Assembly: GCA_963974305.1 (NCBI GenBank)
Contig: CAXBCS010000005.1
Span: 1,537-65,536, forward strand
Reading direction: 5' to 3'
From: an uncultured bacterium
Lineage (GTDB): Bacteria > Bacteroidota > Bacteroidia > Flavobacteriales > Flavobacteriaceae
DNA: 64,000 bases
Both the position numbers and the translations under genes were made by a program. Positions 1,777 to 53,117 of this stretch are shown here, one piece after another; the first letter of the stretch is position 1, and each line of letters starts with the position of its first letter. The notes beneath the pieces are model-generated. The model did not search any database and was not told the DNA's origin. It was given only the letters and a program-made list of their open reading frames with translations.

Positions 1777-2310
1777 TTAATTAGTCTTAATCAAAACACC
1801 ATCGGCCATAAAGCGGAGTTCGCGTTTTGACTCGGTGATTGCAGCAATTTCTTCAGCAGTTTTTCCTGCATCTTTAGCCATATGCTGTAATTCGTCTACA
1901 GACACTTCCTCAAGATAAGCTTTACCTTCAACGATCGCTTGTCCTTCAGCATCCAAAGGAACGAAGAATCCGTAATCCTTGAATTTTACAAACACCTCTT
2001 CTTCTTGAGCGATATCAAGACGCATCCAACAACCTTTTGATTTACAAACGGCATTAATAGGAGCCTCAAATTTAACTACTGCCGTATCTCCTGGCTTTAA
2101 TTGGGCATACTTCTCATTGATCTCAGCCTGTGTCATTGCGTCTGTTGCAGAGATTTCAGCTCCAAAACTTGCATAATCTTCTTGTGATGAAGCAGTTGTT
2201 TCCTCCGCTTTCGCGAAAGCTACCGCCTCCTCTTTTTTGTTCTCTTGGGTAGACTCTGCACATCCTATCATCATACATCCAGCCAAGGCTACTACTAATA
2301 AAGTCTTCAT
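1777..2310 (-). CDS. DUF4920-like lipoprotein
   Basis: Lipobox MIGC; VCKSKGCWM and FKDYGFFVP motifs; start taken at MKTLLVV. Confidence 0.75.
   Translation of the reverse strand: MKTLLVVALAGCMMIGCAESTQENKKEEAVAFAKAEETTASSQEDYASFGAEISATDAMTQAEINEKYAQLKPGDTAVVKFEAPINAVCKSKGCWMRLDIAQEEEVFVKFKDYGFFVPLDAEGQAIVEGKAYLEEVSVDELQHMAKDAGKTAEEIAAITESKRELRFMADGVLIKTN
2207..2220. repeat. palindrome GCTTTCGCGAAAGC, copy 1
   Basis: Inside the DUF4920 gene, read as AFAKA. Confidence 0.95.
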
Positions 2311-2407
2311 ACTATTTGATTTTAAGTAATTACCTGACAAAATTATGAATTTCTAGACGCTCTCGGGTGTTAAATTCATAAATTTGCAGAGAAATACAGT
2401 TATACCT

Positions 2408-3457
2408 ATGAAAATCACTCAAAGACCTAGTTCGAAGATTGCAGATATCGATTTTAATAACCTCACTTTTGGGAGTGTTTTTACAGATCATATGTTCATA
2501 TGTGATTATGTAGACGGGGCTTGGAAAGAGCCAGAAATTGTGCCTTACGGCCCAATGTCTATCGAACCTAGCGCCAAGGTATTTCATTATGGGCAAGCTG
2601 TTTTTGAAGGAATGAAAGCCTTTAAAGATGAGGCTGGCAAAGTGTGGCTTTTTCGCCCAGAGGACAATTGGGAACGCATCAATAAATCCTCAGAACGTTT
2701 AGCAATGCCTGCCTTTCCTAAAGATTATTTCTTTGAAGGCATGGATCAGCTTTTGAAAATGGATAGCGATTGGATCAAGCCTGGAGACGGTAATGCAATG
2801 TATATCCGCCCCTTTGTGATTGCAACCCAAAATGGAGTTTCAGCTTCTCCTTCAAATAGCTATAGATTTATGATAATCTGTGCTCCTGCACAAGCTTATT
2901 ATTCTGGAGAGGTAAATGTGCTCTTTGCTCAGAAATATAGCCGCGCCGCCGATGGGGGTGTTGGTTTTGCAAAAGCAGCTGGTAATTACGCCGCTCAATT
3001 TTACCCTACAAGCCTAGCAAATGCAAAAGGCTACCAACAAATCGTATGGACAGATGCCAGTACTCATGAATTCCTTGAAGAAGCAGGAACCATGAATGTG
3101 TTTTTCCGTATTGGAGACACTCTTATTACAGCACCAACTAACGATCGCATTCTTGATGGAATCACTCGCAAAAGTATCATCGCCCTCGCCGAAAAAGCTG
3201 GTGTAAACGTTGAAGTTCGCCCAGTACGCGTTTCTGAAATCGTCGCTGCTTCTAATGCAGGCGAATTAAAAGAAATTTTTGGAGCAGGAACTGCTGCGGT
3301 TGTGGTACCCTTTAATTCTTTTGGACATGATGAGAAAGATTATCAACTACCAGCTCAAAATGACGACAGCTATGCACGTCGTTTCAAAAAAGCTCTTAAC
3401 GATATTCAATACAACCGTGCAGAAGATACAATGGGCTGGAGACGTGAAGTTAAGTAA
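2408..3457 (+). CDS. ilvE: branched-chain amino acid aminotransferase
   Basis: FHYGQAVFEGMKA, AKAAGNYAA, EEAGTMN, ILDGITRKS, GAGTAA class IV PLP motifs. Confidence 0.93.
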   Translation: MKITQRPSSKIADIDFNNLTFGSVFTDHMFICDYVDGAWKEPEIVPYGPMSIEPSAKVFHYGQAVFEGMKAFKDEAGKVWLFRPEDNWERINKSSERLAMPAFPKDYFFEGMDQLLKMDSDWIKPGDGNAMYIRPFVIATQNGVSASPSNSYRFMIICAPAQAYYSGEVNVLFAQKYSRAADGGVGFAKAAGNYAAQFYPTSLANAKGYQQIVWTDASTHEFLEEAGTMNVFFRIGDTLITAPTNDRILDGITRKSIIALAEKAGVNVEVRPVRVSEIVAASNAGELKEIFGAGTAAVVVPFNSFGHDEKDYQLPAQNDDSYARRFKKALNDIQYNRAEDTMGWRREVK

Positions 3458-3512
3458 GCTGTAAATAGACAATTTTCCGTAACTTTAGAGGTCTAACAAA
3501 TACCCCATTATC

Positions 3513-4310: not shown

Positions 4311-4339
4311 AATCCCGCCATCGCGGGATTTTGTTTTTT
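4311..4339 (+). terminator. intrinsic terminator after the M48 gene
   Basis: AATCCCGC-CATC-GCGGGATT followed by a T-rich run. Confidence 0.65.
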
Positions 4340-4366
4340 ATCTTTACAGTACCAAAATACATTACT

Positions 4367-5881
4367 TTGAATAAGAAAACCATCCTAATGATTCTCGATG
4401 GCTGGGGCGTCGCTCCAGACCAAAAAGTATCTGCCGTAGATCAGGCGCAAACCCCTTTTGTCGATAGCCTATATACCAAATATCCACATAGTACTTTACT
4501 CACTCATGGTGGTAACGTTGGGCTTCCAGAAGGTCAAATGGGCAATAGCGAAGTAGGGCATATGAATTTAGGAGCTGGTCGCATTGTGTATCAAGATTTA
4601 GCAAAAATTAATTTGGCAATTAAAAATGACACTTTAAAGGACGAAATAGTATTAAAAGAGGCTTTCGCCTATGCTAAAGCATACAAGAAACCCATTCACT
4701 TGCTAGGCCTCGTTTCTGATGGCGGAGTGCATTCTCATATTGATCATTTGAAGGGTCTTTTATTAGCTGCCGAAGAAGCTGGAATTCCGCAAACGTATAT
4801 TCATGCGTTTACAGACGGTCGGGATGTAGATCCAAAATCAGGTAAGGGTTTTTTGGAGGATGTAGACGCTTTCGCGAAAGCGCACTCGGCACAGCTGGCC
4901 ACAGTCATTGGAAGATATTATGCCATGGACAGAGACAGCCGCTGGGATCGTGTACAAAAAGCTTATGATCTGCTTGTCAATGGAAGCGGTACCTTATCAG
5001 AAGATATTGGTAAAAGCATGCAGGCAAGTTATGAGGCCGATATTACCGATGAGTTTATAGATCCTCTAGTGATGGCAGAAAATGGCAAGCCCATCGCTAC
5101 CATCGCAGAAGGAGATGTTGTAATCTTTTTTAATTTCAGAACTGATCGTGGTCGCGAACTTACACAGATGTTATCGCAAAAGGATTTTCCTGAACAGGGA
5201 ACTAAAAAACTTAATTTGCATTATGTCACATTGACTAATTACGACAACACTTTTGAAGAAGTAAACGTCGTATATGATAAAGATAATTTAGTCGATACTT
5301 TGGGTGAAACTTTGGCGAAAGCCGGAAAAACCCAAATTCGAATCGCAGAAACTGAGAAATACCCACATGTTACCTTCTTCTTTAATGGAGGCCAAGAAAT
5401 TCCATTTGAAGGTGAAAGTCGTCTTTTATGTCCATCTCCAAAAGTGGCAACCTACGACTTACAACCAGAGATGAGCGCCTATGATATAAGAGATAAAATC
5501 ATTCCTGAAATTGAAAAAGGAGAGGTTGATTTTATTTGTTTGAATTTTGCCAATCCGGATATGGTGGGACATACTGGTGATATGAAAGCCGCTATCAAAG
5601 CTTGTGAAGTGGTTGATAGTTGTACAGAATCTATTGTAACGGCTGCTCTTGAACATGAGTATACAATTATCATTATTGCCGACCATGGTAATGCAGAAAC
5701 GATGATCAATCCTGATGGATCACCTAATACGGCCCACACTACCAATCCAGTGCCTATTATTCTTGTCGACCCAGATATTAAAGAAATACGAAATGGAATC
5801 TTAGCCGATGTAGCACCTACTATCCTTGATTTATTAGGTGTTGAGCAGCCAGCAGTCATGGATCGTAAATCTCTGATATAA
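4367..5881 (+). CDS. gpmI: 2,3-bisphosphoglycerate-independent phosphoglycerate mutase
   Basis: ILMILDGWG, GQMGNSEVGH (phospho-Ser), HAFTDGRD, GRYYAMDRD, NPDMVGHTG, ADHGN; TTG start chosen. Confidence 0.96.
   Translation: MNKKTILMILDGWGVAPDQKVSAVDQAQTPFVDSLYTKYPHSTLLTHGGNVGLPEGQMGNSEVGHMNLGAGRIVYQDLAKINLAIKNDTLKDEIVLKEAFAYAKAYKKPIHLLGLVSDGGVHSHIDHLKGLLLAAEEAGIPQTYIHAFTDGRDVDPKSGKGFLEDVDAFAKAHSAQLATVIGRYYAMDRDSRWDRVQKAYDLLVNGSGTLSEDIGKSMQASYEADITDEFIDPLVMAENGKPIATIAEGDVVIFFNFRTDRGRELTQMLSQKDFPEQGTKKLNLHYVTLTNYDNTFEEVNVVYDKDNLVDTLGETLAKAGKTQIRIAETEKYPHVTFFFNGGQEIPFEGESRLLCPSPKVATYDLQPEMSAYDIRDKIIPEIEKGEVDFICLNFANPDMVGHTGDMKAAIKACEVVDSCTESIVTAALEHEYTIIIIADHGNAETMINPDGSPNTAHTTNPVPIILVDPDIKEIRNGILADVAPTILDLLGVEQPAVMDRKSLI
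4867..4882. repeat. palindrome CGCTTTCGCGAAAGCG, copy 2
   Basis: Inside gpmI, read as AFAKA. Confidence 0.95.
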
Positions 5882-7279: not shown

Positions 7280-7280
7280 T

Positions 7281-9998: not shown

Positions 9999-11012
9999 TT
10001 ATTTCAGAAGTAATTTTTCAAAACCAGCGGTCACATAGGTTCCCGTTGAATCATTCTCTTTGGCAAATACAAGATAAGCATCAACATCCTTTAGATCAGA
10101 TAATACAGCTTTAGATTTTTCTAAACCCATTGCCATAAAAGCAGTAGCATATGCGTCGGCGGTGGCGCAATCTTTTGCAATTACCGTTGCTCCTAAAACA
10201 TCACTTTTTTCTGCACTCCCCGTCAAAGGATTGATGGTATGCACATACTGTTGTCCCGTTTGCTCATCTACTCTATTTTTTCGATAATTCCCTGAACTCG
10301 CCATTGACAGATTCTCTAAGGCAACGACAGCAACATGACTGCGATTATCTTGTTCAGAGTTGACACTTTCTACACCTACTGTCCAAGCTTTTAAACTACT
10401 TTGATTTTTACCACTTCCGCGAACTTCTCCGCCTAACTCAATTAAGAAATGTTGTAAAGCACGAGATTCTAAATAGACCGCGATTCGATCGATACCATAG
10501 CCTTTAGCTACCGCATTAAAATCGAGGTAGACTTCTGGGAATTTTTTGGAAATCTTGCCGTTTGGCGAAATTGCGATTTTATCCAAACCTACATACTGCA
10601 TCATAGAATCCAAGCGTAGGCTGTCAAAAACGGCAATGGGTTTTGTATCTCCAAAACCATAGGCATTGCGCAAACCTCCAACCGTTGGATCAAAGTAATG
10701 GTACGTCGTTTCATATACCTTTCGCGAAAGCGTAAACACTTCTTTAAACATTTCGTCCACGATCACAGTAGTATTTCCCCTATTGATTTTGGAAATATCA
10801 CTTTGAGGTATGTAGGTAGACATGGATTTATTTACTCTATAAATCACAGAGTCTATTCCTTTTTGAACCACTGCTGCATTCTCTGCTGTACCATAATATT
10901 TAACAGCATAGGCCGTCCCAAAGGCTTCTCCTCGCAGTGTGATTTCATCAACGGTTTCAGGGCCACTACAGCCAATAATAAACAAGCAGATTAGTGAAAG
11001 TAAAAAGCGCAT
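9999..11012 (-). CDS. apbE: FAD:protein FMN transferase ApbE
   Basis: Lipobox IIGC; MSTY...SDIS.IN, FDPTVG, LDFNAVAKGYG, ELGGE, MASSGNYR, INPLTG, ADAYATA. Confidence 0.95.
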   Translation of the reverse strand: MRFLLSLICLFIIGCSGPETVDEITLRGEAFGTAYAVKYYGTAENAAVVQKGIDSVIYRVNKSMSTYIPQSDISKINRGNTTVIVDEMFKEVFTLSRKVYETTYHYFDPTVGGLRNAYGFGDTKPIAVFDSLRLDSMMQYVGLDKIAISPNGKISKKFPEVYLDFNAVAKGYGIDRIAVYLESRALQHFLIELGGEVRGSGKNQSSLKAWTVGVESVNSEQDNRSHVAVVALENLSMASSGNYRKNRVDEQTGQQYVHTINPLTGSAEKSDVLGATVIAKDCATADAYATAFMAMGLEKSKAVLSDLKDVDAYLVFAKENDSTGTYVTAGFEKLLLK

Positions 11013-11410: not shown

Positions 11411-13408
11411 TTACTTGTTCAATACCTGTTTGAAATAAGCCGCTTTTTGAGTATCTCCAAGCTCGGTATACAAAAGCACGACTTCTTTGCCTAACTCGGT
11501 GTCTGTCGTGTCTAGTAAAAACGCTTTTGCTAGACTATCTGTAGCAATAACTCCTCTATTAATAGCTCCATAAAACTGGGCGACAGTCATCCAATATTGT
11601 TTTTGTTTAGGAATTGCAGGATTGGCAATCGCCATCGTGCTGAAACCTTTTTGTAAGGCGGCATGTGCCGCTGGCTGCTTGACCAAACTTAATAAAAAGG
11701 TATAGGCAGCCTCTAATTGTGGATTCACGACAAGAGCATCTTTAATTGCATCTACTGCTTTTGAGTACTGTTTTATAGCGGCATAACAATAAGCCGAATT
11801 GAGCAACATATCAGTATTTGACCCATCAATTGCTTTTGCCTTTTCAAAGAATCCCAGTGCCGCATTATAGTCTTTATAGTAGGTGTACTGAATCGCACCC
11901 AAATTATTTAAAACATAAGGTTGATGTGCATCAATCTCTAAGGCACGCTCATACAATGCCTGGACTTCTTTTATATGTTCTGTGCCCTTTGGCTCAAGTG
12001 ATCTTATAGGCAAAGTTGTAAACAGTTCATCAGCGAGAAAGGTATGTGCTCTAAAGGAGTTTTGTAAATGTTTGATATCATGACGATATAAGACCAAAGT
12101 ATTTTCCCAGTCGTCATTGCGCTCAATGGTTCGCAAACTATATATCCCAATAATAAAAACAAGACAGCTTAACAATGCAATATTTGCCGTTTGCATAGAA
12201 AATTTCGCTTTCGCGAAAGCGTAGCCACGCCACAACAATATTCCAAGAACCAAAACAAATCCAACAGAGAATATATAAGCAAATCGTTCGGCGACAATGC
12301 CTACCATTGGGTATACTAAATTGACAACAATTGCCATTACACCCAACCATATGACCAAGGCCAAGCCTAATACATCGCGTTTCAAGAATTTAATAATACC
12401 ATAGATCCCTAAAGGAATAAAAATCAAGATCGCCACCCATACTTGCCAATAAGAAAAATCAGCCAAAGGAATCTGACTGTATCCATAATAAAAGGAAAGA
12501 TCTTCTGGAAAAATGAGTAGTTGTAGATATAAGAATGCCGAGTAGCATCCAATACCCACACGAGTTAGAAAACTATCATCAACAAATAACGGATTTTCAA
12601 AAAATTGAAAGGTTCTAAATTCTTCCCCTGGAATGGCCGCTCTTAGGACTAAAACTATCACTAAAGACAGAGTCACCGAACCCACTGCCATTAAAATACG
12701 TTTGCCAGAGGTACTCGTATAGTATAGAAGTACAGGTATCAACCCAAAAAAGGCTAAGGAGCTCATCTTACTTAAGAATGCCAGTAAAGCCAAGGCACCA
12801 ATTCCCCACAAGCGTTTTTTCAAACCTTCCCTTGCAAATCGCACACATTCTATGAGTGCCCATAGCAGGAATACCATCATTAATAATTCGTCTCTACTCT
12901 TAATGTTATTTACGACTTCCGTATGGATAGGATGCACCATAAATAATATGGTAATGATAAGCGGTAATCCAAAGGAATAGCCTTGAAGAACCATGCTCAG
13001 GAGATAGAGTAGTAAAAAACCATTTAAAGCATATAATAGAATATTAATAAGGTGACTAACATTGGCCTCGGTAAGCACATTATTGTCTAGCTTTTCCTGG
13101 GGTTGCTGAGAATCTGGCAAAGCGCCAAAGAGGGATTTTTCTATCGCAAAGGTCGTATGTGTTAATGGGCGATATTCAAAGCGTGTTTCTCCATCATCTG
13201 CATAATAATTGGTAAAAAGTCCGGGGATATTCTCAATACCATCTGCTGTTTTAGGATTTCCATTAGTGACATAATAATCATCCATGCCATATTCATTATC
13301 GATGGCATTGAAATACACTAAAAAAGGGAGTAACAGTACAAAAAGATAGCTCAATTTGCGTTGTCTTGCAGTAAATTTTAAAATCATAAAGAACCTAAAC
13401 TTAGTCAA
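11411..13408 (-). CDS. TMTC-like GT-C glycosyltransferase with C-terminal TPR repeats
   Basis: MDDYY loop, EYRPLT, HPIHTEVVNNIKSRDELL, LSK, VAERFAY, RNDDW, then TPR-like helices; about 11 TM segments; start may be ATG 13387. Confidence 0.85.
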   Translation of the reverse strand: MTKFRFFMILKFTARQRKLSYLFVLLLPFLVYFNAIDNEYGMDDYYVTNGNPKTADGIENIPGLFTNYYADDGETRFEYRPLTHTTFAIEKSLFGALPDSQQPQEKLDNNVLTEANVSHLINILLYALNGFLLLYLLSMVLQGYSFGLPLIITILFMVHPIHTEVVNNIKSRDELLMMVFLLWALIECVRFAREGLKKRLWGIGALALLAFLSKMSSLAFFGLIPVLLYYTSTSGKRILMAVGSVTLSLVIVLVLRAAIPGEEFRTFQFFENPLFVDDSFLTRVGIGCYSAFLYLQLLIFPEDLSFYYGYSQIPLADFSYWQVWVAILIFIPLGIYGIIKFLKRDVLGLALVIWLGVMAIVVNLVYPMVGIVAERFAYIFSVGFVLVLGILLWRGYAFAKAKFSMQTANIALLSCLVFIIGIYSLRTIERNDDWENTLVLYRHDIKHLQNSFRAHTFLADELFTTLPIRSLEPKGTEHIKEVQALYERALEIDAHQPYVLNNLGAIQYTYYKDYNAALGFFEKAKAIDGSNTDMLLNSAYCYAAIKQYSKAVDAIKDALVVNPQLEAAYTFLLSLVKQPAAHAALQKGFSTMAIANPAIPKQKQYWMTVAQFYGAINRGVIATDSLAKAFLLDTTDTELGKEVVLLYTELGDTQKAAYFKQVLNK
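12206..12221. repeat. palindrome CGCTTTCGCGAAAGCG, copy 3
   Basis: Inside the TMTC-like gene, read as AFAKA. Confidence 0.95.
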
Positions 13409-15048: not shown

Positions 15049-15147
15049 TCGTTTAATATTAGATCTAGACTAGGGTCCATTTTAAAACTAAAATTGTCTC
15101 AAAACAATTACATTTGCAAGTATAAACATTTTTATTGGCACACCTTT

Positions 15148-16272
15148 ATGATCCCATTTAATGTCCCTTTCGCATCTGGAGATGAATTGACACAGATTTC
15201 GGCGGCAATAGCCGATAATAAGCTCTCTGGTAATGGACATTTTACAAAAAAATGTAAAGCCCTTTTCAAAGAAAGGTATGGTTTTGATAATAGCTTTTTA
15301 ACCACGAGTTGCACAGCGGCTATTCAGATGGTTGCAATAGCCATGGACTTAGAAGCTGGAGATGAAATTATACTTCCTTCTTATACCTTTAGTTCTACAC
15401 CAAATCCCTTCTTGATTGCAGGAGCCACAGTAAAATTTGCCGATTCAGAACCTGATCATCCTAACGTTTCTTTAAAGTCTATAGCTTCTCTTATTACCCC
15501 AAAAACAAAGGCTGTCATGGTGGTGCATTATGGCGGATACGCTTGCGATATCATAGGTATCAAGGCATTGTGTGACCAACATGGTTTGCTTTTAATAGAG
15601 GATGCTGCTCAATGCATACAGGGCTTTTACCAAGGGAAACCTTTAGGGAGTTTTGGAGACTTTTCGGTATTTTCTTTTCACGAAACCAAGAATATCCACT
15701 GTGGAGAAGGCGGACTGCTTGTTGTCAACAATCTGGATTATGTAAATAAAGCAGAGACCATTTGGAACTACGGTACAAATAAGAAAGCTTTTTTAAGCGG
15801 GGAAGTCGACAGCTATGAATGGACAGGATTAGGACTTTCATTTTGTCTTTCAGAGATCAATGCTGCTTATTTATACGCCCAATTACAGCATGTTGAAAAA
15901 GTTACACAAACACGAAAATCACTTTGGGAATCCTACTTTCGAGCTTTGAAACCTTTAGAGAAATTAGGGCTACTCAAACTCCCACAAATTAAGGGAGAAG
16001 ATAGCAGTTATCATACCTTTTATGTGTGTACGCTTTCGCGAAAGCGGTATCTCGACCTTCAAAAACATTTACTCACTAATTTTGTTTTGGCTGTACAGCA
16101 CTACTACCCTTTACATGAAAGTGCCTTTGCTAAAGCAGAAGGCCTCAGTGCAGATTTACCCAATGCTAGTTATTTTGGAGATAACCTTCTGCGATTACCA
16201 TTGTATGAAGGCTTAACAACAACTCAAGTTGACCAAATTACCAAGCTTATTTTAGATTTCTACAAAAACTAG
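15148..16272 (+). CDS. DegT/DnrJ family sugar aminotransferase, WecE/RffA-like
   Basis: TTSCTAA, PSYTF.ST.N.F, VHYGGYAC, EDAAQ, FSFHETKN..CGEGG, AAYLYAQL. Confidence 0.88.
   Translation: MIPFNVPFASGDELTQISAAIADNKLSGNGHFTKKCKALFKERYGFDNSFLTTSCTAAIQMVAIAMDLEAGDEIILPSYTFSSTPNPFLIAGATVKFADSEPDHPNVSLKSIASLITPKTKAVMVVHYGGYACDIIGIKALCDQHGLLLIEDAAQCIQGFYQGKPLGSFGDFSVFSFHETKNIHCGEGGLLVVNNLDYVNKAETIWNYGTNKKAFLSGEVDSYEWTGLGLSFCLSEINAAYLYAQLQHVEKVTQTRKSLWESYFRALKPLEKLGLLKLPQIKGEDSSYHTFYVCTLSRKRYLDLQKHLLTNFVLAVQHYYPLHESAFAKAEGLSADLPNASYFGDNLLRLPLYEGLTTTQVDQITKLILDFYKN
16031..16046. repeat. palindrome CGCTTTCGCGAAAGCG, copy 4
   Basis: Inside the WecE-like gene, read as LSRKR. Confidence 0.95.
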
Positions 16273-17015: not shown

Positions 17016-17802
17016 GATCTATCATACTATTAAACGTAAGGTGTACTGCTGTCCCTACTGGATTTTGTAATTCCTCAACACTATGTTCAATATGCCATTT
17101 TCCATTATATTCTAATAATTTAAGGCGGTCCTGCAATACAGTAGTCGATCTATTTTCGATGGTCTTTGTGGTTTTCTTAAAAAGCTCTTTGGCAGCCGTA
17201 AGACCTATTCCATCATCAATGACAGAGACTTGGAAGCCATCATCTTCTAGTGCCCTAAACTCAACCTTAATTGTTCCTGATCCTTTTTTGTGAAAGATGC
17301 CATGATTGACGGCATTTTCTACTAAGGGTTGTAATAACATCGAAGGGATTTCTGTGTCATCTTCCAAAGCATCATCAACGGTTATCTCATAATGAAGCCT
17401 ATCTTCAAAACGCAGTTTTTCAATGGATAAATAGTTATCAAGAAGATTCACTTCCTCCTCAAGTGTAATCGTTTGCTTACGCGAAAGTTCAAAAAAGGCT
17501 CTGATCAATTTAGAGAATTTCGAGAGATATTCTTCAGACTGCTCCACTTCATTACGTTGAATATAATATTGAATCGCATTGAGGGAATTATGCACAAAAT
17601 GCGGATTCATTTGTAAGCGTAGCGCCTGAAGTTCTATCGCATGCATTTGTTGTTGGATTGCTAATTTATCTTCATAGTTTTGAGTAATGAGTGAGTTACG
17701 CTTTTTGACAAAAACTGTAAAAACAAAAATAAGAGCAACCACCATTATTGCCAAAACAATCCCTATTCCCACCACTACAATGCCTATTTTTTCATCGGAC
17801 AT
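17005..17802 (-). CDS. LytS/YehU-type histidine kinase, single TM, no own sensor domain
   Basis: LRLQMNPHFVHNSLN H-box, LLQPLVENAVNHG, DDGIG; only one N-terminal TM helix. Confidence 0.93.
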   Translation of the reverse strand: MSDEKIGIVVVGIGIVLAIMVVALIFVFTVFVKKRNSLITQNYEDKLAIQQQMHAIELQALRLQMNPHFVHNSLNAIQYYIQRNEVEQSEEYLSKFSKLIRAFFELSRKQTITLEEEVNLLDNYLSIEKLRFEDRLHYEITVDDALEDDTEIPSMLLQPLVENAVNHGIFHKKGSGTIKVEFRALEDDGFQVSVIDDGIGLTAAKELFKKTTKTIENRSTTVLQDRLKLLEYNGKWHIEHSVEELQNPVGTAVHLTFNSMIDHED

Positions 17803-19558: not shown

Positions 19559-20386
19559 TTAAACTTCTATTGACGGAAAAGAACTTGTTCTAAAATTGAT
19601 TTTCACTCCTCCAATAATGTCTGCACTCATATTAACTGCAGCAGTCGATTTCTCGTTTACTACCTTGACTCGCACTCGACTCGAAGTATAGCCTCCACTT
19701 ACGTTGGCCCTTCCCCAGCCCCATCGCGCTGAAGCTGATCCTTAAACTCCCCATTTATTGGATTTTGAGTCAATATCATAAGTTCTGCTTTCGGTAAAAT
19801 CAGTTGAATCAATATGAAAAACAAGTTTGGTTTCAACGAGACCATTTGTTATCTCAACCTTTTGCATTCCAAGTTTTAAAATGGTCACGAGCATATTATA
19901 ACTCTCTGATGCAGATTGTGATATTTTTTCAAGTACGAATTTTTGAAGATCCAATTTTGAAATTTTCTTTGCTGAAGTTCCAGTAATTTTTGCTTTCAGA
20001 TCTACTTGATTATTGCCCTCAGCAATAGTTACGTTTTGAAAATGAGATTGCATAGCCTCAATATCTTCGTCTACAAGATTCACATTAGCTCCAGTACCTA
20101 AAGTCAGCCCTAAAACTTCCTCTATGTAATTGTCTAACGAATCCTTATCCTCGGTATTAAGCGCATCAAAGTCGGTTGAACTAATTCCTGTAACCTCCTT
20201 TTGATATTCAATAAGAGGTTTTGAAACTTCGGCTACGAGCTGTGAATAAGCCTTAAGTTGTTCCATAGAAGAATCAACCACAATTTTGTACACGTTCCGT
20301 ACAAGGTCTGAAGTAAAGTCTACAAAGCCAATGTTTTGTACATTTCCAAGTTGTTCCATGGCTTCATCTGCTGATGTATTTGACAT
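19559..20386 (-). pseudogene. 275-codon gene with an internal TAA; helical N-terminus and amphipathic beta-hairpin C-terminus
   Basis: ORF 19742..20386 stops at TAA 19742-19744, but the same frame continues 60 codons (GSASARWGWG...FPSIEV) to TAA 19559-19561, 19 nt before the next ATG. Confidence 0.8.
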
Positions 20387-20710: not shown

Positions 20711-20724
20711 GCTTTCGCGAAAGC
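20711..20724. repeat. palindrome GCTTTCGCGAAAGC, copy 5
   Basis: Intergenic, between the nqrF stop and its terminator. Confidence 0.95.
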
Positions 20725-22790: not shown

Positions 22791-22859
22791 AATGTATATT
22801 TTGAATGTTTACGCGCTTCGTGGACTTCATCGCAGTTTCGCGAAAGCGTACTTACCATA

Positions 22860-39401: not shown

Positions 39402-40400
39402 TTAAAACTGACAGTTTCTTGGGGTTACATTTTCAACGAGGGCAGCAATTGCCTTTATGTGTTCTGGCTGTGTGCCACAACAACCTCCAATGATATTGAC
39501 AAGGCTTTTATCTATGTATTTTTTGATTTGTGATGCCATTTGCTCTGGTGTTTCGTCATAGGCTCCAAAGGCATTAGGCAAGCCAGCATTGGGATGAGCT
39601 GAAATTCCAAAAGTTGTTCGTGAGGCAATAGCTTCCAAATGCGGTTGTAATTGAGAAGCACCTAGAGCACAATTAAACCCTACTGTAAGTAATGGAATAT
39701 GAGAAATAGAAATCAAAAAAGCTTCAGCGGTTTGCCCAGACAAAGTTCTGCCTGAAGCGTCAGTAATCGTTCCAGAAACCATGACTGGAATGTTAGAATT
39801 GCGCTCTTCTTTCACCTCTTCTATCGCAAACAAGGCTGCTTTAGCATTTAGGGTATCAAAAACCGTTTCTACTAATAAAATATCTACACCGCCATCGATT
39901 AATGCTTCAACTTGTTGCTTATAAGCTAGGCGTAGTTGGTCAAAAGAAACAGCTCGAAAACCTGGATCATTAACATCAGGAGACATACTAGCCGTCTTGT
40001 TTGTTGGCCCAATACTTCCAGCGACAAAACGAGGTTTGTGAGGCTCCCGATCAGTAAAAGATTGGGCAACTTCCTTGGCAATTTTCGCGGAAGCGAAATT
40101 TAACTCATACACCACATCTTCCAATTCATAATCGGCCATGGCGATAACAGTACTTGAGAAGGTATTTGTTTCGATGATATCGGCGCCGGCGGCAAAGTAT
40201 TTACCGTGAATCTCTGCAATGGCCTTAGGCTGAGTGATACTTAATAAATCATTATTCCCCTTAAGCGGAATATGAAAATCGGCAAATCGCTCCCCTCGAA
40301 AGTCTTCTTCGGTAAATTTATAGGCCTGAAGCATGGTCCCCATGGCTCCATCGAGAACCAGGATTCGTTTTGATAATGCTTGTTTTAATTTGTCTGTCAT
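39402..40400 (-). CDS. homocysteine S-methyltransferase domain (N-terminal half of split MetH)
   Basis: LDGAMGT, ETNTF, AGSIGPT, LVET.FDTLN.KAA, GFNCALG, PNAGLPN, GGCCGT. Confidence 0.95.
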   Translation of the reverse strand: MTDKLKQALSKRILVLDGAMGTMLQAYKFTEEDFRGERFADFHIPLKGNNDLLSITQPKAIAEIHGKYFAAGADIIETNTFSSTVIAMADYELEDVVYELNFASAKIAKEVAQSFTDREPHKPRFVAGSIGPTNKTASMSPDVNDPGFRAVSFDQLRLAYKQQVEALIDGGVDILLVETVFDTLNAKAALFAIEEVKEERNSNIPVMVSGTITDASGRTLSGQTAEAFLISISHIPLLTVGFNCALGASQLQPHLEAIASRTTFGISAHPNAGLPNAFGAYDETPEQMASQIKKYIDKSLVNIIGGCCGTQPEHIKAIAALVENVTPRNCQF

Positions 40401-41563
40401 TTGAGAGCTTGTTCAATGTCGTTTAGTATATCCTCTTTATGTTCTAGGCCAACAGAAATTCGAACAAGACCATCTGTAATGCCCACCTCTTTTCTATCCA
40501 ATGGACTCAACCTGGCATGCGTGGTCGATGCGGGATGTGTCACAATGGTCCTGGTGTCTCCAAGGTTTGCTGTAAGTGAACACATTTGGATAGCATCCAA
40601 AAACCTCTTACCACTTTCTAGTCCGCCCTTAATCTCAAAAGCGATTACATTGCCCCCAAGTTTCATTTGTTTTTTGGCTATGAGGTAGTTGGGATGCGAT
40701 TTTAAGAAGGGATAATGTACTTTTATAACACTTTGATGAGCTTCTAAAAATTGGGCTACTTCCATTGCATTTTCACAATGTTTATCAACTCGTACGGCGA
40801 GAGTTTCAAGACTTTTGGAAAGAGTCCATGCATTGAATGGTGATAAAGCCGGACCTGTAATTCGTGCAAACCTATAAACAATGTCTACTAGATCTGCCCT
40901 ACCAACAGTTACACCTCCCATTACCCGACCTTGTCCATCAATCAACTTGGTTGCCGAATGGATCACTAAATCGGCGCCAAATTTTATAGGTTGTTGTAAA
41001 TAAGGAGTAGCAAAACAATTGTCAACAATAAAGATGAGATTATGCTTTCGCGAAAGCGCACCTAACATTTCTAAATCTATAATATCAACTCCTGGATTTG
41101 TTGGAGACTCCACATATAGAATTTTAGTCTCTGGACGGATCAAACCTTCTATTTGATCCAATTGATTGACATTGAAATAGCTATGTGAAATATTCCATTT
41201 GGGAAAATAGTTTGTAAACAAACTGTGTGTATTTCCGAAGATTGCCCTTGCCGAGACCACATGATCCCCACTATCGAGGAGCGCTGCAAAAGTGCTAAAG
41301 ATTGCCGACATACCCGTTGCAAACGCATGGCCGGCTGCCGCACCTTCCCACTGGCACATTTTCGTCACAAACTCGGCGACATTAGGATTCGTATACCGAC
41401 TGTAGATATTGCGTTGTTTTTCTTCGGCGAAAGAGGCTCGCATATCTTCAGAATCATCAAATACAAAGCTAGATGTCAAAAAAATAGGCACCGAGTGCTC
41501 CGCATGTTGAGAGCGTTCAATTTGGGTACGGATAGCTTGGGTTTCTGGTTTTGTTTTGATCAT
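40397..41563 (-). CDS. O-succinylhomoserine sulfhydrylase-like PLP enzyme (MetZ-like)
   Basis: YSRYTNP, ATGMSA, ESPTNP, VDNCFATP, HSATK.IDGQG, NLGD.RT.V.HPASTTH. Confidence 0.8.
   Translation of the reverse strand: MIKTKPETQAIRTQIERSQHAEHSVPIFLTSSFVFDDSEDMRASFAEEKQRNIYSRYTNPNVAEFVTKMCQWEGAAAGHAFATGMSAIFSTFAALLDSGDHVVSARAIFGNTHSLFTNYFPKWNISHSYFNVNQLDQIEGLIRPETKILYVESPTNPGVDIIDLEMLGALSRKHNLIFIVDNCFATPYLQQPIKFGADLVIHSATKLIDGQGRVMGGVTVGRADLVDIVYRFARITGPALSPFNAWTLSKSLETLAVRVDKHCENAMEVAQFLEAHQSVIKVHYPFLKSHPNYLIAKKQMKLGGNVIAFEIKGGLESGKRFLDAIQMCSLTANLGDTRTIVTHPASTTHARLSPLDRKEVGITDGLVRISVGLEHKEDILNDIEQALK
41044..41057. repeat. palindrome GCTTTCGCGAAAGC, copy 6
   Basis: Inside the MetZ-like gene, read as LSRKH. 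Confidence 0.95.
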
Positions 41564-41644
41564 TTTTTTATAAGCTTGGTCGGAATTCATTTTTACCTAA
41601 TTCATTCAATCGATTTAGGAACGTAGAATAGAACCGCTTCTATT

Positions 41645-43724: not shown

Positions 43725-45017
43725 TTAGGCTAAAACGGCGCGATCCACTTTGGCGAAAGCCGCAACCAAATCATTTTTTAAATCCTCAATATCCTCTAAA
43801 CCAACTGAAAGTCGGATCAAATCTTGCGTCACTCCTGTCGAAGCTTGAGCATCGGCACTTAATTGCTGATGAGTGGTGCTTGCTGGGTGGATTATCAATG
43901 ATTTACTATCCCCAATATTGGCCAATAGTGAAAACAATTCTGTTTCATTGGCTATTGTTTTGGCACTTTCAAAGCCACCTTTTACTCCAAAAGTTACAAC
44001 GCCGCTTTGTCCTTTAGGCAAGTACACATCAGACAAGTGCTTATAGGCACTACTTTCCAAACCAGGATAATTTACCCAGTCAACTTCTTCTTGTTGTTCT
44101 AGCCATTGTGCTAATGCGAGTGCATTTTGAGAATGTTTTTTAATTCGGATATCTAATGTTTCTAACCCTTGAATAATTTGAAAGGCGTTGAACGGACTAA
44201 GTGCAGCTCCGTGATCGCGTAGACCTTCGATACGCGCTTTGGCTATAAAGGCTGCAGCGCCAAGTACATCGTGATAAACGAGTCCGTGATAGCCTGCAGA
44301 CGGCTCTGTAAATTCAGGAAACTTGCCAGAAGACCAATCAAATGTTCCTGCGTCAATTATGGCTCCACCTAGGGAAGTTCCGTTTCCATTAATGTATTTA
44401 CTAAGGGAGTGAATTACAATATTAGCGCCGTGTTCGATCGGATTTAATAATGCAGGTGTCGCAACTGTGTTGTCTACGATAAGCGGGACTTTGTGCGCTT
44501 TCGCGAAAGCGGAAATACCTTTAATATCAAGAACGTCAAGTTTAGGATTCCCTAAAGACTCAATAAAGAATGCACGGGTATTTTCTTGAGCTGCAATTTC
44601 AAAATTCTTAGGATCTGATGGATCTACAAAGGTTGTTGTAATGCCAAAACGAGGCAGAGTAACACTTAATAAATTGTAGGTGCCTCCATACAAACTGCTT
44701 GAGGCTACAATGTGATCTCCAGAACGGAGTAGAGTGAGCAAAGTAGTATTGATAGCTGCCGCCCCAGAAGCTGTAACAACTGCTGCCAAACCACCCTCAA
44801 TCGCAGCCAATCGTTTTTCTAGAATATCATTGGTAGGATTGTTGAGGCGGGTGTAAATAAATCCCGCTTCGGAAAGATTGAACAAATTGGCCGCATGATC
44901 AGCATCGTTAAATACATAGGCCGTCGATTGATAAATGGGCACTGCTCTTGTTCCTCCGGTAAGTGCTGTGTCGTGTCCTGCATGCAACGCTTGGGTTGCT
45001 AGTTGATGTGTACTCAT
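43725..45017 (-). CDS. metY: O-acetylhomoserine aminocarboxypropyltransferase
   Basis: AVPIYQ, YTRLNNPT, ESLGNP, VDNT.ATP, HSLSK, LANIGD.KSL.IHPASTTH. Confidence 0.9.
   Translation of the reverse strand: MSTHQLATQALHAGHDTALTGGTRAVPIYQSTAYVFNDADHAANLFNLSEAGFIYTRLNNPTNDILEKRLAAIEGGLAAVVTASGAAAINTTLLTLLRSGDHIVASSSLYGGTYNLLSVTLPRFGITTTFVDPSDPKNFEIAAQENTRAFFIESLGNPKLDVLDIKGISAFAKAHKVPLIVDNTVATPALLNPIEHGANIVIHSLSKYINGNGTSLGGAIIDAGTFDWSSGKFPEFTEPSAGYHGLVYHDVLGAAAFIAKARIEGLRDHGAALSPFNAFQIIQGLETLDIRIKKHSQNALALAQWLEQQEEVDWVNYPGLESSAYKHLSDVYLPKGQSGVVTFGVKGGFESAKTIANETELFSLLANIGDSKSLIIHPASTTHQQLSADAQASTGVTQDLIRLSVGLEDIEDLKNDLVAAFAKVDRAVLA
44496..44511. repeat. palindrome CGCTTTCGCGAAAGCG, copy 7
   Basis: Inside metY, read as AFAKA. 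Confidence 0.95.
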
Positions 45018-51193: not shown

Positions 51194-51278
51194 AGTAGTG
51201 TTCTCGAGCCGCAGTAATGTGTTTACATATCACCTTAGACTAAGGAACAAAGAGTATATTAAAATATTTTACTAGCTT

Positions 51279-52175
51279 TTAAAAGCGTCTCCCTCCTCTG
51301 TTGTCACCTTTACGACTACCTCCACCAAAGCGATCTGCCATTTCTTTTGCCTTTTCTTCGACAATTTTGAGGTATTCTTCTCGTGTCACTTCTTTTCCTT
51401 TAGAAGGAACTTCAATCACAACTTCTTCTTTAGGATTCAAAACAACCTTTGTACATAAAATGGTTGTATTATTTGTGCTTAACTCCAGAATCAAACCTGG
51501 CAAACCACCAAACTCATCTGGACCATGAGAAGCGGGAATCATAGGTGTATACCAAGCGGTAATCGTTTCTGTTTTTGGCTCTTCAATTTCAATTTCATCC
51601 TCTGTGCTTGCTGTAGCTGAAGAATCTACCTTTTTATCCCTAGCTTTTTGGGCATCACTAGCTCGACGTCCCATACGGCTCCACATATTTTGCTCAATAT
51701 CACGAGTGGCAACAGCCTTAAACGCTGGGTATTGTCCAATCATTTTACTTTCTTTCACCAGCTCCCATTCTAACGAATTAATGGTATCCTTTACAAGAAA
51801 GGTTTTTCCCATCATGTTATTTTCACGTGCATAAGCTTTAGAAGTTGCATTTTTATAAATACCACCTTGCGTAAAACCTCCGCCCCAACGGCCCCCACCT
51901 TGTCCAGGTACAGCTAATTTTTCTTCTTCCTTATAAAAGGATTCTTCATTGGTGAAGCTGAGGGTATATTCCTTCTCTAAGAAATTTTTCATACGCTCCA
52001 TAATTTGCTTTTTACGTTGCTCTGTCATTTGTTGCCCTCCTCTATTAAAACGAGACATGTCCATGGTCGTTTTTGTTTTGTAGGTTGCAACACCCTGAAC
52101 CTTTTGTGCATACATGGGCATTGCCATAAAGCAAATCGCACATAAAATTCCTATTTTTCTTAAAGTCGTTACCAT
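51279..52175 (-). CDS. GLPGLI family protein
   Basis: WEL.KESK.IGQY...KA, AWYTPMIP..HGP..FGGLPGLILEL. Confidence 0.92.
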   Translation of the reverse strand: MVTTLRKIGILCAICFMAMPMYAQKVQGVATYKTKTTMDMSRFNRGGQQMTEQRKKQIMERMKNFLEKEYTLSFTNEESFYKEEEKLAVPGQGGGRWGGGFTQGGIYKNATSKAYARENNMMGKTFLVKDTINSLEWELVKESKMIGQYPAFKAVATRDIEQNMWSRMGRRASDAQKARDKKVDSSATASTEDEIEIEEPKTETITAWYTPMIPASHGPDEFGGLPGLILELSTNNTTILCTKVVLNPKEEVVIEVPSKGKEVTREEYLKIVEEKAKEMADRFGGGSRKGDNRGGRRF

Positions 52176-52280
52176 TATTCTATTGTTAAATGAACTTTCT
52201 AACTCGTTAGACTTTAAAATTACAGTAAAGTTTCACCGACTATAAAATTTTAAGAAGAAATTGTGAATTTGACCACAATA

Positions 52281-53117
52281 TTACCCGCCTATTCTAATGG
52301 TCATAGAGTGATTATCTCCTTTCTTACGACCGTGATCCTGGCGTTCCATCATTTCCCTTGATTTTTCTAAAGAAATTTTATCGTACTCTTCTTGGGTGAC
52401 TTTTTTCCCTTTTTCTGGGATTTCAATTACAATAGGATCTTTAGGGTTTAGGACAACTTTTGTGCACATCATGGACATTTTTCCATCATTTACTTCTAAT
52501 ATAAGACCAGGCAATCCCCAAAATTCATCCGGTCCATGTTGCATAGGAATATCTAAGGTATACCAAGCAGTAATCTCCCGGGTGACCATTTTTGTGGTTG
52601 CTTTTCCTTCTCCATTTATATGTTCAAAGGTTTCAATTTCGTTTTCTTCGGTTAAGGTTGCCTTAAAGCAGGTATATTGCCCAATGTTTTTGGTTTCCTT
52701 TACCAATTGCCAGTTGGGCTTCTTTAGCACATCTTCAATAAGAAACTGCTTCCCCATAAGATCACTTTGAATGGTATAGATCTGATCGGTAATATTATGA
52801 TATCTAATATCTCTATTTCCTGATATCATAATCACCATTCCACTACTCGAAGGCGCTTTTGGCTTGTCTAAATCTGCTGCCTGCTCTTCCCATAATGCTT
52901 CCCCCTTATTAAAAGTGAGATCATATTTACGTTGAAACTGCTTGCGCAATTGTTCTTGAATACTTTTTTGCATTTCACTATTCATTCCTGAGGTGCTGTC
53001 AAGAGTCAGCTCGACATGACGCTGCGTTTGATAGGTAGCTATCCCTTGTAGATTTTGGGCGGTAGCTTTCGCGAAAGCAAAAAGAGTAACCAGAATCGCT
53101 AAAATTAAATTTCTCAT
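52281..53117 (-). CDS. GLPGLI family protein (paralogue of the adjacent gene)
   Basis: WQL.KETK.IGQYTC.KA, AWYTLDIP..HGP..FWGLPGLILEV. Confidence 0.92.
   Translation of the reverse strand: MRNLILAILVTLFAFAKATAQNLQGIATYQTQRHVELTLDSTSGMNSEMQKSIQEQLRKQFQRKYDLTFNKGEALWEEQAADLDKPKAPSSSGMVIMISGNRDIRYHNITDQIYTIQSDLMGKQFLIEDVLKKPNWQLVKETKNIGQYTCFKATLTEENEIETFEHINGEGKATTKMVTREITAWYTLDIPMQHGPDEFWGLPGLILEVNDGKMSMMCTKVVLNPKDPIVIEIPEKGKKVTQEEYDKISLEKSREMMERQDHGRKKGDNHSMTIRIGG
53065..53078. repeat. palindrome GCTTTCGCGAAAGC, copy 8
   Basis: Inside the signal peptide of a GLPGLI gene, read as AFAKA. Confidence 0.95.

Follow-up and report, generated by a model that had tools for sequence, protein, structure and literature searches.

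The Dokdonia/Nonlabens group, the marine flavobacterial lineage that hosts the DNA analyzed here, carries a highly iterated 14- to 16-bp palindrome that is a selected DNA signal and neither a chance nor a coding feature. The window, i.e., the whole stretch of 64,000 nucleotides that was analyzed, contains 8 perfect copies of the 14-mer GCTTTCGCGAAAGC, compared to 0 expected from 100 dinucleotide shuffles. Four of the eight are perfect copies of the 16-mer CGCTTTCGCGAAAGCG, and three more carry one outer mismatch; at the remaining site (53065), both outer bases were taken as non-canonical because it was not among the 16-mer matches at ≤1 mismatch. Genome-wide (3.47 Mb, 38.3% GC), there are 415 14-mers and 307 16-mers, and very few one-off variants exist for the inner 12 bases (~18 compared to the 307 perfect 16-mers). 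An earlier note on this DNA had listed the eight 14-mers at 2207, 4868, 12207, 16032, 20711, 41044, 44497 and 53065, and these positions proved exact. Its 12- to 13-bp cores were recovered as well (10718/10719, 22834/22836 and 37686/37687). Its near-misses were found again at 5309, 17475 and 43747 (2 mismatches) and at 35501 and 40081 (3 mismatches), but no match with ≤3 mismatches was present at about 1209 or about 30198. The two near-cognates in Table 1 are probably decayed sites or proto-sites.

The excess does not stem from protein sequence. The palindrome occurs 356 times in coding sequence, compared to 0 to 9 times (mean, 3.5) after 20 within-gene synonymous-codon shuffles, and it is read in all three frames, as AFAKA (247 copies), LSRK (62) and RFRES (47). 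The peptide AFAKA is itself found 253 times where 1.3 are expected, and 247 of these are encoded by the word, in agreement with the earlier proposal that the constraint lies on DNA and not on peptide. By our own crude ORF calls, 86% of the copies are genic; the description "mostly inside genes" is thus correct, but it merely reflects coding density (90% of the DNA). Spacing is roughly one palindrome per 4 to 8 kb in genes and spacers alike, and in the related G011 clade, 39 to 46% of the copies fall within the non-coding 9% of the DNA. We found no paper that describes this palindrome.

Table 1. Copies of the palindrome, single E words and near-cognates in the window
Feature	Coordinates	Strand	Context
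Palindromic site (two overlapped E words)	2207..2220		In DUF4920 ORF 1777-2340(-); 16-mer with one outer mismatch
Perfect 16-mer	4867..4882		In iPGM gene 4331-5881(+), read as AFAKA
Near-cognate ACTTTGGCGAAAGC	5309..5322		2 mismatches, CGCG center broken
Single-strand E word TTTCGCGAAAGC (class II)	10720..10731	+	Antisense to ORF 9999-11012(-)
Perfect 16-mer	12206..12221		In TPR/O-mannosyltransferase-like ORF 11411-13408(-)
Perfect 16-mer	16031..16046		In DegT-family aminotransferase ORF 14974-16272(+)
Single E word, loop variant TTTCGCGTAAGC	17475..17486	-	Sense strand of ORF 17005-17802(-)
Palindromic site	20711..20724		Spacer, ORFs 19742-20386(-)/20749-22056(-)
Single E word	22836..22847	+	Spacer, ORFs 22059-22790(-)/22860-23507(-)
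Single E word	37688..37699	+	Antisense to ORF 36648-39401(-)
Single E word, loop variant TTTCGCGGAAGC	40083..40094	+	Antisense to ORF 39402-40400(-)
Palindromic site	41044..41057		In Cys/Met-metabolism PLP enzyme ORF 40397-41590(-)
Near-cognate ACTTTGGCGAAAGC	43747..43760		2 mismatches
Perfect 16-mer	44496..44511		In Cys/Met-metabolism PLP enzyme ORF 43725-45017(-)
Palindromic 14-mer	53065..53078		In Porph_ging-family ORF 52281-53117(-)

Point substitution creates the new copies, including ones that change the amino acid sequence, and once present they are near-invariant and kept apart. The iPGM site is present at the same place in Dokdonia MAGs and absent from Kordia, Nonlabens and other genera, and the orthologues differ by codon-for-codon replacement with no indel. 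Of 33 orthologous sites overall, 26 align without a gap over ±36 nt; their motif-less states are substitutions, for example AYAKA to AFAKA and presumably, in the KatG family, AFARA to AFAKA. Sites are therefore gained by substitution and not by insertion; the idea in the earlier note of an insertion target finds no support at these indel-free sites, and the lack of any length change or target duplication led us to reject a MITE or other inserted mobile element. Between genomes that are 92 to 93% identical, the core diverges at 0.16% (4/2478 positions), compared to ~7% in the flanks, and at ~70% identity, 13 of 26 sites are still perfect. The palindrome is a lineage-specific genomic signal held by a selection-like fixation bias.

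The working unit is a strand-specific 13-base word, TTTCGCGNAAGCG, hereafter E (5'-TTT-CGC-GNAA-GCG-3'). The 14- to 16-bp palindrome consists of two E words on opposite strands with a 10-base overlap, so that either strand carries one unit. Among sites with GC at positions 2 and 3, position 11 is A in 830 of 863, compared to 155 of 339 sites without this GC (T, 80; C, 53; G, 51), i.e., a variant fraction of 3.8% versus 54%. This strong coupling was replicated in G011 (A in 204/205 versus 25/37). At single-E sites, divergence is 1.5% for the E positions, 6.9% for N11 and 6 to 7.6% for the flanks. Abundant single-E sites are confined to G000 (339) and G011 (37 per 400 kb). Since the second genus has few of them (12 versus 163 in 800 kb), some may be half-decayed palindromes.

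A known mini-hairpin, GCGNAAGC, lies within E, and its loop position 2 is the N. The published mini-hairpin rule is GCGNNAGC, and GCGAAAGC is an ultra-stable DNA mini-hairpin of the G4 primase site with poor SSB binding and resistance to exonucleases (PMC13037366). Each strand of the palindrome carries GCGNAAGC, which agrees with GCGNNAGC or GCGNAGC, and N is free in single-E sites. Two observations speak against a hairpin: loop position 3 (A12) is invariant, although both GCGNNAGC and the RNA GNRA rule permit variation there, and the 5' TTT of E is conserved, for which a hairpin gives no explanation. Nearest-neighbor folding yielded just -2.6 to -4.3 kcal/mol, with parameters that, according to a review, fail for the mini-hairpin motif (PMC13037366). 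The conditional constraint on position 11 is explained equally well by a monomer that reads a duplex 13-bp word without contacting position 11.

The sites are over-dispersed, with 2.4% of gaps shorter than 1 kb compared to 13.4% expected, and single-E sites avoid palindromic ones (10% within 1 kb versus 24.5%). Genic single E words lie preferentially on the antisense strand (171 antisense versus 94 sense; p 3e-6), whereas chance E-like words do so in 48 to 50% of cases. This 65% antisense share would suit an element acting as RNA, in which the transcript of either strand would form a hairpin with a C(GNAA)G tetraloop, trailed by an A/C-rich tail without structure, and would act on untranslated and especially antisense RNA through termination, processing or decay. 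The GNAA loop with its free N also fits the GNRA rule, and G-poor, C-containing tails resemble Rho-loading regions. However, orientation is unbiased in tandem intergenic spacers (21 versus 23), there is neither an excess between convergent genes nor a T-run, GNGA loops are not enriched, the strongly skewed arm (12 to 30 nt) is short for a rut site, and the specificity of a 13-nt word is left unexplained; we consider an RNA element improbable. Spacer types are used in proportion, with convergent spacers depleted in G000. An intrinsic terminator was likewise rejected, as the 3' arm is A/C-rich without a T-run and copies are not in excess between convergent genes. With respect to GC skew, 119 of 234 single E words are on the G-rich strand, which is no bias (57% of genes lie there as a control) and argues against a role in lagging-strand priming only. 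This lack of co-orientation with replication also excluded a Chi/KOPS-type oriented word. Chi and KOPS resemble the word in being over-represented in the cell's own DNA at kilobase spacing and in a possible role in single-stranded DNA or recombination, but they are short, asymmetric and co-oriented.

Each E word, in spacers as well, is followed by a 3' arm of 12 to 30 nt that is G-poor and A/C-rich with A at every third base. At third codon positions and in spacers, C drops to 9 to 10% on the 5' side and G to 10% on the 3' side; at single-E sites, the skew is kept in the 3' arm and mostly lost in the 5' arm. In intergenic arms of three lineages, A reaches 51 to 60% at +3, +6, +9 and +12, versus 36 to 44%. 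Orthologues without the word have unskewed flanks. We considered whether the skew could be a mutational scar, left by deamination or error-prone synthesis on DNA made single-stranded again and again beside a break or nick at the palindrome. Its polarity would fit the 3' tails that resection leaves, and the purine/pyrimidine ratio is unaltered, the changes being A↔G and C↔T. Hypermutation, however, predicts a near/far ratio above 1, with an estimated 1.3 to 1.5 times more differences near the word, and the ratio for third-position transition differences is 0.60 (CI 0.41-0.83; far, 61 to 150 nt). C/T differences amount to 0.023 close to the word versus 0.044 to 0.048 further off, and the arm content is position specific with a 3-nt period. 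Such a scar is hardly credible, and the arm is maintained by fixation bias, not by hypermutation.

On balance, we tentatively favor, at slightly less than even chances, a selected signal that is read on single strands. Reading would take place on single-stranded DNA or, with lower probability, on RNA. The CGC-GNAA-GCG part of E is predicted to fold into a very stable, SSB-excluding, exonuclease-resistant mini-hairpin d(GCGNAAGC). The A/C arm on its 3' side, being free of structure, could offer a landing pad, either to a protein with triplet steps or to one that requires a junction of hairpin and tail. A primosome or primase, by analogy with the phage G4 origin, is one candidate reader; a loader of the RecA or AAA+ type is another. 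Units every ~4 kb on both strands might then mark and service the cell's own DNA in single-stranded transactions, namely, recombination or repair, restart and the handling of imported DNA. We regard as unlikely the more specific picture of a chromosome studded on both strands with single-strand landing pads at a regulated spacing of ~4 kb, each an SSB-excluding mini-hairpin with a structure-free, triplet-periodic arm, on which a RecA-, DnaA/AAA+- or primase-like protein (filament-forming or primosomal) would be nucleated each time the DNA turns single-stranded. If true, this would be a signal for genome maintenance or self-recognition of a class not described before, and mini-hairpin DNA would have its first physiological role in a cellular chromosome. 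The word shares several features with d(GCGAAAGC)/GCGNNAGC and the G4-type ssi signals: GCGNAAGC stands on each strand, closed by one more C-G pair, the free position is loop position 2 and an unstructured 3' tail follows, and the switch of the G4 hairpin between a long hairpin and a mini-hairpin would be possible at the flavobacterial word as well (PMC13037366). Those cases are, however, single phage or plasmid origin sites, whereas the flavobacterial chromosome has hundreds of copies with an invariant loop position 3 and without lagging-strand bias, and any link to primase would be by analogy.

Few sequence signals leave their mark on a bacterial genome as a whole. Hyper-iterated words (HIP1, USS/DUS and Chi) belong to these few, and what HIP1 does has been debated for 30 years. 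Like the cyanobacterial HIP1 (GCGATCGC) and Elhai's alternative HIPs, the flavobacterial word is a hyper-abundant, lineage-limited palindrome lying far above expectation in genes and spacers genome-wide, and the function of HIP1, long open, is now suspected to be in DNA exchange (PMC4390886, PMC5861425, PMC13756078). It also shares with HIP1 a substitution origin inside genes, conservation above the surroundings and non-random spacing. Compared to HIP1, it is twice as long and ~5 to 10 times sparser. It can also be resolved into two strand-specific words with a hairpin, each of which bears an arm that is skewed and triplet-periodic; in one HIP1 paper, "skew" and "hairpin" never occur and "flank" occurs once (PMC5861425). 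HIP1 also has conserved orphan methyltransferases for sequences within the palindrome, whereas our search returned no conserved methyltransferase of the C5, β or Dam class. G000 lacks Vsr, and its sole candidates are a phage/ICE-borne C5-MTase and a type III mod; C5-MTases (PF00145) occur in half of the genus genomes (17 of 34) but not in the complete, motif-rich G011, G017, G009 and G002, in which PF01555 and PF02086 enzymes also gave nothing above the cut-off. Type I-like N6 MTases (PF02384) are the sole universal ones. These results do not support the methylase or mismatch-repair footprint envisaged in the earlier note. They also argue against the view that the word has no function and results from biased methylation or repair, either HIP1-style (methyltransferase plus short-patch repair) or through a selfish drive converting near-cognate to cognate. 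The rarity of one-off variants and the CGCG/TCGCGA in the core would fit such a process, and sequence alone cannot separate fixation bias from biased conversion. Local conversion drive would not lead one to expect over-dispersion and mutual avoidance of the site classes, and two isolated Nonlabens phages are without any copy; we therefore judge biased repair quite improbable.

The word was found in 33 of 33 other sampled genus genomes and in one other genus (of 120 genera in the family); 16 other families in the same order gave no occurrence. It has dialects, with a relaxed outer base in G013 and TTAC...GTAA in the G011 clade, and in the G013 lineage it is decaying through CpG to TpG changes, as if its machinery had been lost. 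This pattern, together with the even spacing and the extreme conservation, would also be expected of a word read as duplex DNA, i.e., a USS/DUS-like tag for self uptake or recombination or a binding array for a chromosome organizer, with one monomer per 13-bp word and two per palindrome, copies gathering by molecular drive or by selection for coverage. HIP1 has lately been linked to transformation (PMC13756078, bioRxiv 10.1101/2024.09.10.611283), and ComEC is present. The USS of Pasteurellaceae and the DUS of Neisseriaceae share with our word lineage specificity, dialects, even coverage of genes and spacers, degenerate flanking preferences and the tracing of gene flow. USS and DUS are, however, non-palindromic, unlike the flavobacterial word, and they go with a type IV pilus or pseudopilus machinery. 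G000 (96.7% complete) has no PilB/PilT/GspE-type ATPase (PF00437), so that the canonical pilus-based uptake machine is missing, and the flavobacterial genera that bear the word are not known to be competent. Reading as duplex also fails to account for two features, the preference of single words for antisense over sense and the K/M-type arm with its 3-nt periodicity. It would further have to be a matter of chance that the word holds the DNA mini-hairpin of highest known stability and that N falls precisely on its free loop position. We thus hold a duplex word to be rather unlikely. A nucleoid-protein site, another reading in the earlier note, may yet apply, but a single ParB-family protein is present, with no extra paralogue; on this ground, and in view of half-sites that are not additive (the 3.8% versus 54% coupling between positions 2-3 and 11), a ParB/Noc-type 16-bp array was rejected. 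REP/BIME elements with their RAYT are similar in consisting of hundreds of short palindromic, hairpin-capable units, but they are extragenic and spread by a Y1 transposase; with 86% of copies genic and substitution-made and no match to PF01797 (Y1_Tnp), they too were discarded. No reader protein or process was found for the word.

The earlier note's view of a HIP1/USS-like lineage mark at the DNA level was borne out; it had missed the one-strand 13-mer unit with its mini-hairpin, the strand-asymmetric arm of 12 to 30 nt and the over-dispersion. New here are the substitution origin and conservation, the one-strand hairpin word with a free loop position, the arm under fixation bias and the placement. 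The word belongs to another phylum than HIP1, is long enough for dissection and overrides protein sequence hundreds of times. Its decay in G013 provides a handle for phylogenetic profiling of the reader, and Dokdonia and Nonlabens include culturable hosts. In other genera, copies are clustered in islands that trace gene flow, a point also in keeping with a duplex word, and the word can serve as a sequence marker for gene flow from this clade into other Flavobacteriaceae.

All eight perfect copies of the 14-mer GCTTTCGCGAAAGC that the earlier note had placed in the window were found at their positions, with 0 expected by chance, and four of them extend to the full 16-mer CGCTTTCGCGAAAGCG. The window holds 14 matches to the 14-mer with at most two mismatches (0.19 expected) and 22 with at most three (2.2 expected); two of the listed near-misses, at about 1209 and 30198, do not fall within three mismatches. 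In the whole genome (G000; 3.47 Mb in 101 contigs, 38.3% GC), of which the window is C5:1537-65536, we counted 415 14-mers and 307 16-mers, the latter compared to only about 18 words that are one-off in the inner 12 bases. When synonymous codons were shuffled gene by gene, 0 to 9 copies remained (mean, 3.5), compared to 356 in the coding sequence. AFAKA occurs 253 times in G000, 247 of them encoded by the word, versus 1.3 expected from amino acid frequencies, and the peptides of the two other frames are also in excess (RFRES, 42 versus 0.3 expected; LSRK, 110 versus 16). The peptide excess and the loss of copies upon codon shuffling indicate that the constraint is on DNA, as first claimed, and that proteins are rewritten by the word. 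Copies are indeed mostly inside genes (86% in G000, using simple ORF calls), but this is no genic enrichment, since 90% of the DNA is coding. The feature is real and strongly selected or driven.

Comparison of orthologous sites ruled out an origin by insertion or from a MITE. In the iPGM gene, ancestral codons were replaced by the word with no change in length, so that of the two origins considered earlier, substitution stands and an insertion target does not. In Nonlabens iPGM, AYAKA became AFAKA and upstream residues changed too (VLKEAF to VLVDAL). The word is likewise read as AFAKA in a catalase-peroxidase-like protein, at a place where we take AFARA to be the usual KatG-family sequence. 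Among named relatives, Dokdonia MAGs share the iPGM site of the window and Nonlabens species have the word elsewhere in the gene, and it is missing from the iPGM gene of Kordia and the other genera compared.

Conservation was analyzed over 400 kb of collinear sequence from each of three close relatives (G011, G017, and G002; 92 to 93% identical). The sequence of 83 of the 102 G011 sites is identical in all three, and core differences amount to 4 of 2,478 positions (0.16%), compared to 6.4 to 7.7% genome-wide. G011 and G000 share about 70% identity, and their silent sites are saturated; of the 26 genic sites compared between them, 13 nevertheless remain perfect at the same codon, with 9 near-cognate and 4 lacking the word. 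Another member of the genus, G013 (loci L125 to L144), has a low word density, about 1 per 18 kb, with only 12 16-mers and 140 copies of TTTCGCGAAA, the outer base being relaxed to T/A rather than C/G. At sites orthologous to those of G000 it carries decayed words, often through CpG to TpG/CpA changes. The force maintaining the word seems to have weakened in G013, making it a natural "loss" lineage whose gene content, upon comparison, could reveal the reader.

Besides the palindromes, we found an asymmetric class of 339 sites in G000, five of them in the window, in which positions 2 and 3 are not GC; its commonest form has CAA at positions 1 to 3. Of the 863 G000 sites with GC at positions 2 and 3, 830 have A at position 11, compared to only 155 of the 339 sites without GC there (T, 80; C, 53; G, 51), and G011 repeats this coupling (204 of 205 versus 25 of 37). 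Mainly from these two genomes, such coupling is as expected if the unit is a one-strand 13-base sequence, TTTCGCGNAAGCG, hereafter E. When E is overlapped with its own reverse complement, T6 and A11 are forced and exactly CGCTTTCGCGAAAGCG is produced. Lone E sites (single-E) are not dead relics, since divergence among the three close genomes is 1.5% at their E positions, compared to 6.9% at position 11, 7 to 14% at positions 2 and 3, and 6 to 7.6% in the flanks. Because single-E is rare in the second genus (12 versus 163, in 800 kb), part of these sites may nevertheless be half-lost palindromes in lower-density lineages.

E contains GCGNAAGC plus one more closing C-G pair (CGC-GNAA-GCG). The oligonucleotide d(GCGAAAGC), in general form GCGNNAGC, is known from Hirao and colleagues as "mini-hairpin DNA." A review describes it as having extraordinary thermal stability, exonuclease resistance, poor binding by SSB, and a lower than expected frequency in natural genomes (PMC13037366). 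At the complementary-strand origin of phage G4, a mini-hairpin lies at the primase priming site, where a longer hairpin can also form in its place (PMC13037366). No sequence other than the 14-mer puts a mini-hairpin on each strand with the two overlapping by 2 bases. N11, the free position, corresponds to the second base of the loop, and all four bases are found there in the TTTC context (GAAA, 985; GTAA, 92; GGAA, 65; GCAA, 60); the conditional constraint on it is new evidence supporting the match of E to a mini-hairpin. Two features misfit a model of a hairpin alone: the third loop base is always A, and conservation extends to the TTT on the 5' side of the hairpin. Standard folding parameters fail for this motif (PMC13037366), and nearest-neighbor folding of the word likewise did not capture it. 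Longer, copy-specific hairpins were rejected, as complementarity of the arms beyond the 16-mer equals that of shuffled pairs. A second family of small hairpins, TTCCGC-GAAG-GCGGAA, has five copies in G000, and its core, GCGAAGGC, is another listed mini-hairpin variant. Two of these copies lie just upstream of a 100-aa ORF in the trp operon, GIY-YIG-like as judged by eye, and related words are also found 1.3 kb upstream.

On the 5' side of the word, the nearest 12 nt contain 9 to 10% C and are enriched in G+T; the 3' side is the mirror image, and the skew has faded by about 30 nt. Third codon positions upstream of the word have 15 to 20% A, 3 to 6% C, 30% G, and 46% T, compared to a background of 31, 17, 16, and 37%, respectively. 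This skew is independent of gene strand and frame and is also seen in spacers and at amino acid-changing positions. The two arms are no more complementary than composition predicts. At single-E sites, the pattern persists in the 3' arm (A40 C21 G13 T26), with the 5' arm near background (16% C). This places the arm on the 3' side of E and identifies the 5' skew of palindromes as the arm of the opposite-strand E. In intergenic arms of G000, G011, and G054 (the one motif-rich genome sampled from another genus), A occupies positions +3, +6, +9, and +12 in 55, 51, and 60% of cases, respectively, versus 36 to 44% in the other phases (P = 1.6e-14, 0.038, and 5.7e-9), a 3-nt periodicity that is not codon derived. 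Such an A/C-rich, G-poor strand would have a small capacity to self-pair.

Were the skew a product of hypermutation, by deamination of single-stranded DNA or error-prone synthesis, we estimate that transition differences near the word relative to far from it would reach about 1.3 to 1.5, compared to about 0.5 to 0.7 under a fixation bias (selection or biased repair). At the 83 shared sites, C/T differences at third codon positions were 0.023 per pair within 12 nt versus 0.044 to 0.048 at 31 to 150 nt, and all third-position transitions were 0.058 versus 0.092 to 0.100, transversions being roughly unchanged. The resulting ratio of 0.60 (bootstrap 95% confidence interval, 0.41 to 0.83) contradicts hypermutation, which we consider barely credible. 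Furthermore, the flanks of orthologues lacking the word are not skewed (K fraction, 0.47 to 0.57 versus 0.63 to 0.67). Both observations indicate that the arm is part of the maintained signal.

Our preferred reading, held tentatively and with somewhat less than even confidence, is that the word is a signal read on single strands, made of the mini-hairpin and an unstructured, triplet-periodic 3' arm. Units on both strands, at regulated spacing, would then serve a transaction of single-stranded DNA, candidates being priming or restart, recombinase loading, and the handling of imported DNA. Palindromic sites in G000 are spaced by 6.9 kb on average (coefficient of variation [CV], 0.84), with 2.4% of the gaps below 1 kb versus 13.4% expected. 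Together with single-E, the 754 sites have a mean gap of 4.1 kb (CV, 0.81), and only 10% of single-E lie within 1 kb of a palindromic site, compared to 24.5% ± 2.6% under random placement. Apart from this avoidance, rare close pairs of word variants, 24 to 59 bp apart, were observed (see the table). Several adjoin highly expressed genes, lying by a ribosomal protein operon, in front of rpoC, and at the 5' end of lysS. The idea that such pairs act as operators for the gene encoding the reader was rejected, as their neighbors (ribosomal, rpoB/C, lysS, trp, anti-sigma) include no plausible reader.

Orientation of single-E showed no bias relative to the GC-skew strand (119 of 234 on the G-rich strand, which carries 57% of genes), arguing against a replication-oriented function. 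Genic single-E are, in contrast to chance E-like words with 3 to 5 mismatches (antisense in 48 to 50%), more often antisense than sense (171 versus 94, P = 2.6e-6; 15 versus 8 in G011). The bias is therefore no artifact of coding compatibility, and strandedness relative to transcription matters. A reading in which the hairpin works in RNA, mainly on antisense transcripts, would draw on this bias but seems quite unlikely to us. Orientation in tandem spacers is unbiased (21 versus 23), which speaks against a function in mRNA 3' untranslated regions or in operon direction. Intergenic copies are spread over spacer types in proportion, and a terminator role was dismissed because convergent spacers are not in excess and no T-run is present.

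We then considered what might write or read the word. G000 has one C5 methyltransferase and one type III mod gene. The former is suggested to lie in a phage- or ICE-like context by flanking genes that look primase-like and UvrD-like. C5 methyltransferases occur in only 17 of 34 genomes of the genus and are absent from the complete, motif-rich G011, G017, G009, and G002, in which no PF01555 or PF02086 family member scored above cutoff; the universal methyltransferases are type I-like N6 only. Since G000 also lacks Vsr, the proposed methylase/mismatch-repair footprint, including drive by a methyltransferase and Vsr, was not upheld, and gene content gives no support for a HIP1-like tie to an orphan methyltransferase. 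Likewise, G000 has no Y1/RAYT transposase, excluding a RAYT-linked element, and a single ParB, excluding a second ParB/Noc as reader. A tag for uptake or organization read on duplex DNA is a somewhat unlikely alternative: ComEC is present in G000, and pilus-based uptake machinery was rejected for want of a PilB/PilT/GspE ATPase.

Coordinates of loci and sites mentioned in the text
Feature	Location	Remarks
Only C5 DNA methyltransferase of G000	G000:C35:18987-22748 (L123)	Neighbors judged by ORF translation
Only N6/N4 methyltransferase of G000	G000:C34:1465-5406 (L124)	Type III mod gene, then res helicase
Close pair	G000:C25:2551-2614	
Close pair	G000:C45:9258-9298	
Close pair	G000:C62:4387-4433	
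Close pair	G000:C66:15451-15526	
Close pair	G000:C10:12226-12298	
Second hairpin family, two copies	G000:C22:8107-8221	
Cys/Met-metabolism PLP enzyme gene	Window 40397-41590	Palindromic site 41044
Paralogous gene, 2 kb apart	Window 43725-45017	Palindromic site 44497
Clustered copies	G139:C3:32330-107263	
Clustered copies	G141:C1:2826984-2837736	
Clustered copies	G155:C1:2543036-2562674	
Clustered copies	G056:C18:82639-142705	

All 24 genomes of the genus in the first sample contain the 16-mer (12 to 713 copies each), whereas the 16 genomes sampled from other families of the order all lack it. With one genome per genus for 120 other genera of the family, massive carriage was found only in G054 (592 copies). 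In a few other genera, 4 to 12 copies are grouped into less than 100 kb; the tabulated clusters span 11 to 75 kb in genomes that otherwise lack the word. Transfer of islands out of the Dokdonia/Nonlabens clade probably explains such clusters and would make the word a marker of the donor lineage. In the searchable literature, we found neither the 14-mer string nor a description of the word, including as Dokdonia/Nonlabens palindromes.

A conversion drive without function we regard as very unlikely. Accessory DNA is not depleted (9.8% of G011 sites in 7.9% of positions), and some uncultured phage contigs (IMG/VR) have 3 to 6 copies each. A general drive acting on any DNA in these hosts was rejected because the Nonlabens phages P12024S and P12024L lack any copy. 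Both of these 35-kb genomes (L216 and L217; JQ823122 and JQ823123) contain 0 TCGCGA and just 9 to 10 CGCG, which may reflect avoidance of the core of the host word, the numbers being very small. Finally, the clade of G011, G017, and G002 (L155 to L214) has its own dialect, intergenic copies extending to the 22-mer TTACGCTTTCGCGAAAGCGTAA with A at -2 in 85%, and places 39 to 46% of its copies in noncoding DNA, which makes up 9% of the sequence, compared to 14% of copies in 10% of the DNA in G000.
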